From: an uncultured Methanosarcinales archaeon
GTDB taxonomy: Archaea > Nanobdellota > Nanobdellia > Woesearchaeales > GW2011-AR9
DNA length: 34,939 bases
NCBI GenBank assembly: GCA_964343575.1
Contig: CAYFJV010000003.1
Span: 1-34,939, forward strand
Direction of reading: 5' to 3'
Positions 12,001 through 15,000 of the stretch are shown here, in pieces. How positions within the stretch are numbered: position 1 is the stretch's first letter; each line of letters starts with the position of its first letter. Made by a program: the position numbers.

Positions 12001-15000
12001 ACAGCCTAGAGCCAAGAATTGAAACTGTAGTAAAAGAAAGAGAGATCCAAATTAATCATACTGTTTATGAAACAGAAATCATAGAAAAAACTATTGAGGT
12101 TCCAGTAGAAGAGCCGATGGGCAATTTCACCGGAAAATTAGAATGTTTTAGAGGTTATTGTTATGCTGAGTGAGGTTAAATGTCGATATACTAGTCAGTC
12201 GCTCTGGTTGCAGGTAAGCCGTCCCATTAGCCGGGATGCCAAGATGCAGTCGACAGACCAGATCATGAGGTGAAAATGGAAAATCAAATGAAGATTAATG
12301 GAAGCAAGGTAGTGGGAGATCCAGAGCATGCATGCGACATCTGGATAACGAATCTTCGCAAAGCAGTCAAAACTGCAAGAAGCCATCATAAAGAAAGACG
12401 TTACAACTTTGAAGATGAATGCTATGAAGATGTAAGGGTCCCACCAGTTGAAACTTTCATAGAATTATTAGACTTTGTGAATTCAAGAGGTTACGAAGTT
12501 ACCCATCCTGAGATCTTTAGAAGTATTTACGGGAAGGAGTTGGTATAAAATGTTTTGGAGAAAAAATAAGATTCCACCTATGGAAATAGTGATGACTAAA
12601 GAAGAAATTGAGAAGGTTAATAATAAAATAGATGAATTGAATAATAGTCTCAAGACAAAAAACAGGATGGAGGTATTCAAGATGATTGAAGTGATTGGTC
12701 ATGAGGAAATAAAAAAGATTTTTAGAATAAAAATCAATGACACAGCAGGAGATGCAGATTCACCTGAGCTCCAATTCAGAAAATCAAAGAAAGGATATGG
12801 GTGGGTTTTAGATTTAGAAGAAGGGGATGACGCTCTTACAACAGCAGAGATAAAAGAAGCCCTGAAAATATCAGAAAAACTCAACAAGAAAGCATAGCAG
12901 AGTAGCCTAATTAGGTTAAGGCGCAGGGCTCATGCACACATCTTCCTGAACTAGGGTGTGTGGGGAAACCCTGAAATAGTAGTTCAAATCTACCCTCTGC
13001 TATAAAAAAAATGCAAAAACAATGTAAGCGATGTGGAAAAAAGAAAACAACATCAGCAGGTAACATCTGTAGAGGTTGTCGTAAAAAACCAAACAAATGC
13101 AAAGACTGCAAAACACCAGTCTATCCAAGATCAAAAAGATGTAGACCATGTGGTTTATTTTACATGAAGAATCCATCAGCATATTCATTAGGCAAGAGAA
13201 GAAAAATGGAAGCCGAGGAAACTTGAGTGAGGTTTTTACCTCTGTGGTTTAGTTTTCCTCACTCAGGCCTTAAGGCCTTCCATTCCTTACTGGGTGGTGT
13301 TTGGCAAGAATAAAACTGACATAAAGGTTGATTTGATTAATATGAATAAGACTAGAGGAGAGTTTAACGAGATAAAGTACGCTGAACTAGTAGACGATCT
13401 TAATGATGATTTGACTCAGAAAGAACTCCGGGAACTCATCAATATGGACGAAGAAGAGCATAAGAGACTCTTGAAACTGTTAGAGAAAGAAGAGGCTGGC
13501 GAGGAAGCCATTCCGGGAGAAGACACCATCGACAATATCCTCAAAAGAAAAGAAGCAAAGTACCAGATCAACAAGGGAGACATCTGGCAACTAGGAAATC
13601 ATAGGCTGATGTGTGGGGATTCAACAGAAGAAGGAAAACTAGGAGATCTCATGGACAACACACCCGTAGACTTACTCCTTACAGACCCACCTTATGGTGT
13701 GAGTTATTCTGAAAAGAACCAATTCCTCAACTCCATCGACAAAGGCAACAAAGTACAAGAAAACATCGTCAACGACGAAATCAAAGACATGAACACATTC
13801 CTAACCGAGAGTTTAGAGAAGATAAAACCCCTAATGGCAGAGACAAGCGCCGCATACATTTTCTTCGCAGGAAAAACCCTAAGGTACTTACTCAACAGTT
13901 TAGACAAACTAGACTTTAAACTACACCAAATACTAGCATGGGTTAAAAACAACCACGTCCTAGGGAGAACAGATTACGCATCAAAACATGAATTGATAGT
14001 CTATGGATGGTTCAACAAGCATAAGTTCTATGGATGCTTTTCCCCTTCTACATTGGAATTTGATAAGCCACTTAAATCAGATTTACATCCGACCATGAAA
14101 CCTATTGATTTGTTAGAGTACATAACAAAGAACTCATCTGAGGAGAATATGGTTGTTTTGGATCCTTTCGCAGGCTCAGGTTCTACATTAATTGCTTGTG
14201 AGAACTCAAAGAGAAAATGTTATACAATGGAAATCGATCCTTTCTATTGTTCTGTAATCATTGAAAGGTGGGAAAAATACACTAATAAGAAAGCTAAATT
14301 AGTAAATAAGGAGTGATTAAAAATGGGTAAAATTGACTATTACAACGTAACAATTCCAGAGGATAAATCTAAGGAAGATTACGATTACGTCCAAAGAAGG
14401 GCAGACATCCTCAAGTTGATCATAGCATCAGGACATCCTAGGGCGATTAGTCAGGCAAAACTAGCTAAGGTTTACGGTGTAGGACAACCCATGATTTGTC
14501 AAGATTTCAAAGCAATAAAGAAATCAATTGAATCCCAAATGGGCGATGATGCAATATTCCGCACTTCAATCTTCTACGAAAAGATGAGTAAATTAGCTTC
14601 TAAGGTGAGTAACATAGACGATGCTTGGAAAGCAGTTAAGATCGTTGAGAGCCATAATAATTTTATGTTTGAATTAGGAAAATTAAAGAGAGCTCCTAGG
14701 GATATCAATGTTAATGATGTAACAAGAAAATCTATGAAAGAAATCTATGAAGAGGCTGAGAAGGAGAAAAGTGCAGGTTCAAAGTCAAAAAAGCCAAAAT
14801 GATGAGGTGTATCTGAAGAAGGCATGGGGAGAGAGAGATGTTAAATATTTAGCAAAATATCTTTTCCCCGGAGTTAAAGCTGCGCAACACCTCACCCTCT
14901 ACCAGAGCATAATAGTCAGAAAAATTGCATTTAGTGAAGTAAAGAGATTCTCTATTTCAGCTTATACTCGTTATGGAAAAACCCAAATTGTAGCTATTGC

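Follow-up and report, generated by a model that had tools for sequence, protein, structure and literature searches.

Why should a tailed virus carry a single tRNA gene interrupted by an intron, and what would the spliced product do in the cell that it infects? The question is raised by the window (that is, the whole 34,939-nucleotide stretch analysed here, contig C3), on which a genome survey had reported an intron-bearing, initiator-like tRNA-Met gene. The virus genes named in that survey were all found again (terminase, portal–MuF fusion, SU10-type capsid protein, tail fibre, neck protein and Cas4-like nuclease), and the combination of terminase, portal, prohead protease, major head protein, and neck and tail genes places the contig in the Caudoviricetes. 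The contig is incomplete and no terminal repeat was found in it; its relatives include complete genomes of 34–42 kb with terminal repeats.

The viral tRNA gene

Rfam places one tRNA gene in the contig, at 12896–13002 on the forward strand (RF00005, 49.5 bits, E 7.6e-08), and this is a genuine tRNA gene with viral genes to either side of it (Table 1). The anticodon CAU, the A1:U72 pair and the GGG:CCC anticodon stem described by the survey are borne out by this match and by the sequence, and the reported interruption of about 33 nt in the anticodon loop is seen as a 33-nt insert. The acceptor stem is fully paired (7/7, with A1:U72, G2:C71 and C3:G70) and the anticodon stem contains three G:C pairs (G29-G30-G31:C39-C40-C41), whereas in the D stem C11:G24 takes the place of G11:C24. 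The T stem contains an A49–C65 mismatch, the variable loop is 4 nt long and the gene ends at discriminator A73 with no encoded CCA. The predicted fold of the precursor surpasses that of 200 of 200 shuffled sequences (z −3.19). ARAGORN did not detect the gene when run without its intron option and miscalled it as tRNA-Ser(CGA) with that option; once a segment is removed it gives tRNA-Met(cat), as the survey had noted, for junctions after position 36, 37 or 38.

Table 1. Features of the tRNA gene and of selected neighbouring and marker loci on the virus contig.
Feature	Coordinates	Strand	Details
70-bp repeat, copy 1	5428..5496	+	TTTAAATA box after a purine-rich stretch; GAGGT ribosome-binding site
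70-bp repeat, copy 2	7566..7635	+	95.7% identical; heads the co-oriented gene block that contains the tRNA
115-aa ORF, no known family	12550..12897	+	TAG stop (12895–12897) overlaps tRNA bases A1-G2
tRNA exon 1, positions 1–37	12896..12934	+	A1; C11 (D stem); G29-G30-G31; anticodon CAU at 12931–12933; G37 at 12934
Intron, 33 nt, canonical position 37/38	12935..12967	+	Bulge–helix–bulge: 5-bp outer helix, central helix with 3/4 pairs (A35–G mismatch), 9-bp inner helix
tRNA exon 2, positions 38–73	12968..13002	+	C39-C40-C41; 4-nt variable loop; T arm with A49–C65 mismatch; U72; discriminator A73
71-aa Cys-rich ORF	13011..13226	+	Starts 8 nt past the discriminator base; no family match
N6/N4 DNA methyltransferase	13294..14316	+	PHROG 498, E 4e-90; PF01555
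Terminase large subunit (family marker)	14747..16306	+	PHROG 2, E 3e-16
Portal fused to MuF-like head morphogenesis domain	16389..18974	+	Family searches
Major capsid protein, SU10-type	23028..24251	+	57–61% identical to capsids of 4 tRNA-CAU-bearing relatives

Position of the intron

Eight junction registers are possible, each removing 33 nt, and all were scored for bulge–helix–bulge (BHB) geometry. The junction after position 37 is the only one with a complete outer helix (5/5, with 3/4 central pairs and a 9-bp inner helix), whereas the 36/37 junction retains 2/5 outer and 2/4 central pairs. As the full BHB forms at 37/38 alone, the intron is the segment given in Table 1 and base 37 is G; the survey's reading, in which exon 1 ended at U36 and exon 2 began with AA, misfits this geometry and is thereby ruled out, with its A37 replaced by G37. 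The serine or leucine anticodons read by ARAGORN are excluded by the same register together with the short variable arm. At the predicted splice sites, two 3-nt bulges bracket a 4-bp central helix with one A–G mismatch, the anticodon stem and the intron helix flank it as paired elements, and removal of the intron yields a cloverleaf whose anticodon loop has 7 nt. Among 100,000 shuffles of the intron, one equalled the real sequence in this register.

The mismatch in the central helix lies within what the host tolerates, as 6 of 17 host introns at 37/38 (20 loci scored, 3 dropped as mis-parsed) have central mismatches, two of them at position 35, and the host initiator intron, with 2/4 central pairs, is among the six. 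The intron-less tRNA-CAU of a related virus (L022, a complete 42-kb genome) has an anticodon loop identical to the predicted spliced loop, G37 included, and a similar T arm, which is independent support for the predicted register and for G37. If expressed, the viral precursor would very probably be cut at 37/38, and a dependence of the putative intron on archaeal EndA and RtcB is supported.

Initiator features and decoding

Three G:C pairs in the anticodon stem and G11:C24 in the D stem are features of archaeal initiator tRNAs. Passages of PMC5393177 treat A1:U72 as a key mark of archaeal initiators, mention G29–C41 and G31–C39, and describe a triple between A37 and G29–C41 in an initiator structure. 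Measured against these features, the survey's description of initiator hallmarks stands in part: A1:U72 and all three G:C pairs are present, whereas G11:C24 (which the host initiator has) and A37 are missing. The viral tRNA further resembles archaeal initiators in G2:C71, C3:G70, CAU, A73 and a T loop like that of the host initiator, and differs from them in C11:G24, G37, the 4-nt variable loop and the A49–C65 mismatch. A1:U72 is not exclusive to initiators, given that the host tRNA-Gln has it too.

An initiator pattern run over 151 genomes of the order (Woesearchaeales) gave 105 matches in 102 genomes, 102 of the 105 with A37; of the three with G37, two were inspected and neither is an initiator gene. 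Inspection of 30 matched loci identified 27 as initiator genes, counts that leave aside atypical initiators because the pattern requires G11:C24. About 7 of these 27, read by eye, have an intron at 37/38, and the initiator of the binned genome (C2:473348-473467) carries one of 44 nt there; the survey's statement that the host initiator is interrupted at the same place but differs in sequence thus proved correct, with 50 of 74 exon positions identical to the viral gene. In position and geometry, the intron is like cellular archaeal BHB introns at 37/38, including those of Woesearchaeales initiators, from which the present gene differs in being virus-borne and in having G37 and C11:G24. In 4 of 150 other order genomes, a tRNA end matches the last 24 nt of the viral tRNA at 92%, three times at an initiator gene located by the pattern; no full-length or intron-spanning match was found in those 150 genomes, and with a loose pattern in 401 order genomes none of 29 inspected non-self matches was a tRNA anticodon arm.

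The TiaS domain was found in none of 41 order genomes, the binned genome (G000) included, and the latter encodes a tRNA-Ile(UAU); therefore CAU should be read as methionine. On these features of sequence, we consider that the viral gene is best called initiator-derived rather than a standard initiator.

Occurrence among related and other viruses

Searches with the terminase retrieved 80 loci from IMG/VR, 3 from GTDB and 80 from metagenomes, with identities of 41–61% near the top. In the IMG/VR set, 55 of the 80 records were scanned whole with Rfam and the other 25 only as fetched loci; among the 55 whole records, 8 have a tRNA and 4 a tRNA-CAU (L022, L046, L018 and L064), and 2 of 10 near-complete relatives carry a tRNA-CAU. 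Rfam finds no tRNA-CAU in the closest relative (L011, a complete virus), and the 80 metagenome loci, many of them short, contain no convincing tRNA. Another relative, L092, has tRNA-like genes with malformed loops. Neither the capsid and terminase of C3 nor the tRNA of L022 has a match among 50,697 phage records.

Seven tRNA-CAU genes were found in the virus family. G37 is present in five of them, an intron at 37/38 in three and the complete set of three G:C pairs in C3 alone (1/7), and the first pair is weak (A:U or U:A) in all seven, although the pattern by which L380 was found forces a weak pair. The gene of L091, a viral contig from a Woesearchaeota bin, combines G37 with an intron of 34 nt at 37/38, and its BHB (3/4 central pairs and a poor inner helix) is weaker than that of C3; L380, which belongs to the same family (capsid 61% identical), has A37 and a 38-nt intron with 2/4 central pairs, also a weaker BHB. 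The three intron-bearing viruses stand on separate branches of the terminase tree, which has 77 sequences, a midpoint root and weak support at several deep nodes; by eye, no relationship is apparent between their introns. Together these observations suggest that the introns were gained separately.

When 2.9 million viral contigs were scanned for tRNA-CAU genes with an intron, 70 matches were obtained, of which two passed the fold filter: L380 and L002, the latter an initiator-like host gene at a provirus edge and therefore rejected as viral. The matching scan for C33 gave 98 matches and two past the filter, neither with a BHB; both patterns are narrow and would overlook introns of greater length or a different T loop. 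A first viral pattern, which demanded G where the tRNA of C3 has A, had no match, and a scan with nine matches (L002–L010) gave none shown to be virus-borne and archaeal: L005 and L007 are mis-hits, and L004, L006 and L008–L010 lie in eukaryote-like tRNA clusters that look like those of algal giant viruses. Such viruses carry intron-bearing tRNAs, for example the chlorovirus tRNA-Tyr, which is like the present gene in being a viral tRNA that needs host splicing, but unlike it in relying on eukaryotic hosts and TSEN-type splicing. Scanning for viral tRNA-CAU genes with G37 gave at least 119 matches, at least 99 past the filter and at least 79 distinct, and these are not confined to the family of C3. 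G37 is nevertheless the minority state, with 4 of the 102 passing genes among 120 matches listed, a set in which some genes may belong to hosts and lie in the flanks of proviruses; three G:C pairs occur in 8 of 84 viral G37 tRNA-CAU genes.

Host of the virus

The bin comprises 1.21 Mb and is of the Woesearchaeota type: every EndA homologue with a named organism is from Woesearchaeota or Nanoarchaeota. The binned genome encodes EndA (246 aa, on contig C1) and RtcB, along with RNase P RNA and a Trm5-like enzyme. Of 185,579 GTDB species genomes, three contain a terminase relative, all in Woesearchaeota or Nanoarchaeota bins, and the contigs concerned look like unplaced viral contigs too, by size and genes. 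Bacterial bins are the source of two named terminase homologues (Thermoanaerobacterium and Atribacterota). On C3, the duplicated 70-bp element is presumably an archaeal-type promoter, judged by its fit to the consensus, and a scan for sigma-70 promoters near the tRNA gene gave 8 sites against 5.1 ± 2.6 expected. Taken together, the duplicated TATA-type promoters and the relatives in Woesearchaeota and Nanoarchaeota bins support an archaeal host, of which we have little doubt; a host of the Woesearchaeales type is likely.

The survey had tied the virus, through its intron, to an archaeal host like the binned genome, and only the first half of that claim fares well. The commonest site of archaeal tRNA introns is 37/38, according to PMC4090602, so that sharing this site with the bin says little. 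Neither a junction nor a significant DNA match links the contig to the chromosome, there is no CRISPR array, and the two share a single weak protein match (E 3e-06); the tetranucleotide distance of 0.239 lies outside those of all 32 chromosome windows (0.046–0.176). That this exact species is the host is thus doubtful.

Proposed role of the viral tRNA

We favour, on balance, the explanation that the gene encodes an accessory Met tRNA of archaeal initiator descent and that the tailed virus carrying it infects archaea of the Woesearchaeales type. The host RNA polymerase would transcribe the tRNA within the co-oriented gene block. No TTTAWAWA box belonging to the tRNA itself was found, and as the closest one upstream lies in repeat copy 2, 5.3 kb away, and the upstream ORF stops within A1-G2, the tRNA is most likely cut from a longer viral transcript. 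RNase P (whose cut would fall within the stop codon of the upstream ORF) and a 3′ nuclease may then free it, EndA would cut at 12934/12935 and 12967/12968, and RtcB would ligate the exons. CCA addition, probable methylation of G37 to m1G and charging by MetRS would complete a tRNA that tops up the Met-tRNA pool during infection, with initiation very slightly favoured over elongation. G37 may be a trait of the viral tRNA lineage that predates the intron, and the intron a tolerated later insertion, gained apart from those of the two related viruses. We count against this explanation the T-stem mismatch, the lack of the full set of three G:C pairs in the other six family genes, the patchy occurrence of the gene, the weaker BHBs of L091 and L380, the homologues in bacterial bins and the missing link between C3 and the binned genome.

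A first alternative, which we regard as improbable, is that the tRNA is spliced and charged with methionine but serves elongation or general use, its initiator ancestry eroded. C11:G24 and G37 are elongator-like, and the three G:C pairs are missing from 6 of the 7 family genes and rare among viral G37 tRNA-CAU genes at large (8/84, as above). Yet the C3 gene itself retains all three pairs, the first pair is weak throughout the family, and internal ATG usage resembles that of the host (18.8 versus 17.1 per 1000 codons), which indicates no codon need.

Somewhat less probable still is a decaying or non-translating tRNA-like element, acting either as an RNase P and EndA processing signal that punctuates the transcript or as a decoy for host tRNA nucleases. 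The T-stem mismatch, the overlapping stop codon, the missing promoter box, the patchy distribution and the malformed genes of L092 would all suit such an element; by contrast, the acceptor, D and anticodon stems have no mismatch, the CAU anticodon is preserved, distant relatives share G37, and a BHB in the exact register suggests selection for correct splicing.

It is very unlikely that the gene marks an attachment site (that is, a host gene at attP, or a copy that restores a tRNA gene broken by integration). Archaeal viruses often integrate at tRNA genes, as parts of PMC4090602 and PMC8651126 relate, L002 shows an initiator-like gene at a provirus edge, and C3 is incomplete; however, family searches of C3 and a PF00589 search of 14 relatives (10 near-complete) revealed no tyrosine integrase, and the limited identity to the bin's initiator, the want of a full-length match in the 150 other order genomes and the viral genes on both sides speak against it.

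A1:U72 and G37 do not fit the consensus of tRNA-Ile2, and although ATA is far commoner in the virus than in the binned genome (24.1 versus 7.8 per 1000 codons), a tRNA-Ile2 that reads AUA after conversion of C34 to agmatidine by TiaS is hardly credible in an order whose sampled genomes lack the TiaS domain and with a host tRNA-Ile(UAU) that reads AUA.

Within the favoured explanation, an accessory Met tRNA derived from an initiator, the role of G37 is more tentative. Parts of van den Berg et al. 2023 (PMC10264068) propose that phage tRNAs with altered anticodon loops escape host anticodon nucleases, and C3 is like those phage tRNAs in that its copy differs from the host copy beside the anticodon. 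That proposal was made for bacteria, in which VapC, PrrC and colicins are characterised, whereas no PIN/VapC domain was found in the binned genome, which weakens this step for that genome; escape from a host anticodon nuclease is in our view the most attractive account of why G37 is kept, though a rather unlikely one. A bolder version, in which G37 (often with C33) protects the viral tRNA from a hypothetical anticodon nuclease of DPANN archaea that targets the host initiator, and viral genes repeatedly gain 37/38 BHB introns in the host cell, is a speculation to which we give low probability. If true, such viruses would document intron gains of recent date and might help tRNA introns to spread among DPANN archaea.

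Comparison with known systems

The survey had not consulted the literature on viral tRNA introns, and a precedent does exist: the text of PMC13532342, as far as it is available, credits the halovirus HGTV-1 with one intron-bearing tRNA gene. In the HGTV-1 genome (Halomagnusviridae, KC292026) we find a tRNA-Ala(UGC) at 49226–49328 with a 31-nt intron at 37/38 and 4/4 central pairs, which is most likely the gene reported. Both viruses thus carry a tRNA with a 37/38 intron, but the gene of C3 has anticodon CAU and initiator marks. HGTV-1, as described in parts of PMC8651126, infects a haloarchaeal host and has about 34 tRNAs in 144 kb with its own RtcB, RNA ligases and CCA enzyme, whereas the 35-kb C3 has its sole tRNA and none of these enzymes was found there. 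HF2, HRTV-5, HVTV-1 and HCTV-1 gave only Rfam tRNA matches of intron-less length, 11 in all.

PMC4090602 deals with canonical introns and with the integration of viruses at tRNA genes, and repeated gains of tRNA introns in Asgard archaea, with no general route, are described in the available part of 10.64898/2026.10.13.758758. The word 'intron' is absent from the accessible text of a paper on CPR and DPANN viruses (PMC12647753), as is the word 'virus' from that of a Nanobdellota preprint (10.64898/2026.05.13.725050). A literature search that left most subscription journals outside its reach returned no item about introns in the tRNAs of DPANN viruses or about viral tRNA-Met with G37.

Implications

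In summary, C3 probably encodes a functional Met tRNA with a predicted canonical BHB intron. Given the HGTV-1 case already in print, an intron-bearing viral tRNA is not in itself a first, but as far as our literature search reaches this is the first one associated with DPANN archaea, and it comes with a family-wide G37 trait and, apparently, with repeated intron gain. Standard tRNA scans miss or miscall such genes, and for viruses with neither a CRISPR nor a provirus link, a viral tRNA interrupted by a BHB intron marks the domain of the host. With three dissimilar introns at a single site and relatives that lack one, this virus family offers before-and-after pairs for the study of archaeal tRNA intron gain, and the contrast between G37 in the viruses (5/7 in the family; 4/102 among the viral matches listed) and A37 in the host order (102/105) points to a testable conflict between virus and host over the DPANN initiator tRNA.

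G37 in viral and cellular tRNA-CAU genes

Among the viral contigs of IMG/VR (records L243-L361), tRNA-CAU genes that combine an initiator-like acceptor stem with G37, the base 3' of the anticodon, are widespread, with at least 79 distinct examples; in the general viral sample, G37 genes make up about 4% of tRNA-CAU genes among the matches listed. A literature search on viral genes of this kind found no paper. The initiator-like gene of L002, a host locus recovered in the scan of viral contigs, lies at the edge of a provirus and adjoins an S-layer-like gene (Table). As this gene is cellular, G37 is found outside viruses too, in one archaeal gene at the least.

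Table. Positions of repeats, tRNA genes and tRNA-like genes
Feature	Location	Details
70-bp direct repeat	window 5428-5496 and 7566-7635	copies 95.7% identical
Cellular initiator-like tRNA gene	L002:2970-3085	U1:A72, G37, perfect bulge-helix-bulge (BHB) intron
tRNA-Ile(UAU)	G000 C1:459311-459438	intron-bearing
Multi-intron tRNA genes (elongator Met, Glu, Arg)	G000 C1:209945-210165, C1:344970-345136, C2:171323-171467	D-loop introns included
tRNA and tRNA-like loci	L092:1742-1881, 1885-1955, 9769-9842, 9851-9927	
Second long tRNA-like match	HGTV-1 (KC292026) 70440-70571	minus strand; 132 nt, 45.7 bits

tRNA-like genes and gene content of other viruses

The loci of L092, a related virus assigned to a Nanoarchaeota bin, comprise a tRNA-Thr gene and tRNA-like genes that have A1:U72 and malformed anticodon loops, and one gene among these loci is possibly intron-bearing. 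In the halovirus HGTV-1, the second long match, which falls outside the main tRNA cluster, may contain a further intron. Within the virus family, several terminase relatives carry intein domains (L091:6392-8839, P0026, P0033, P0034, P0036, P0044 and P0059). Around the tRNA of the intron-bearing relative L380 (710-4808) are PAPS-reductase-like, QueE-like radical SAM, ParB-like and cytosine methyltransferase genes, named by eye from their sequences as opposed to by family search.

Predicted promoter repeat and tRNA border in the window

Judged from its sequence, the 70-bp direct repeat is a predicted archaeal-type promoter with a ribosome-binding site, present in duplicate; one copy precedes each of the open reading frames (ORFs) at 5482 and 7620. 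At the 5' border of the tRNA gene (12895-12897), the stop codon of a 115-aa ORF shares bases with the first two of the tRNA, and 5' processing of the tRNA would thus strip the stop codon from the mRNA of this ORF.

tRNA splicing and proposed AUA decoding in the bin and its order

The only EndA found in the bin's genome (G000) is a single-gene form, 246 aa long and extended at its N terminus, which contrasts with the presence of tRNA genes that have more than one intron in the same genome. Given that the bin has a tRNA-Ile(UAU) and that no TiaS domain was found among the 41 genomes of the order searched, our data suggest that AUA is read by a UAU anticodon across the Woesearchaeales. ATA (Ile) codons are threefold commoner in the virus (24.1 per 1,000 in the coding regions of the window) than in the bin's chromosome (7.8 per 1,000).
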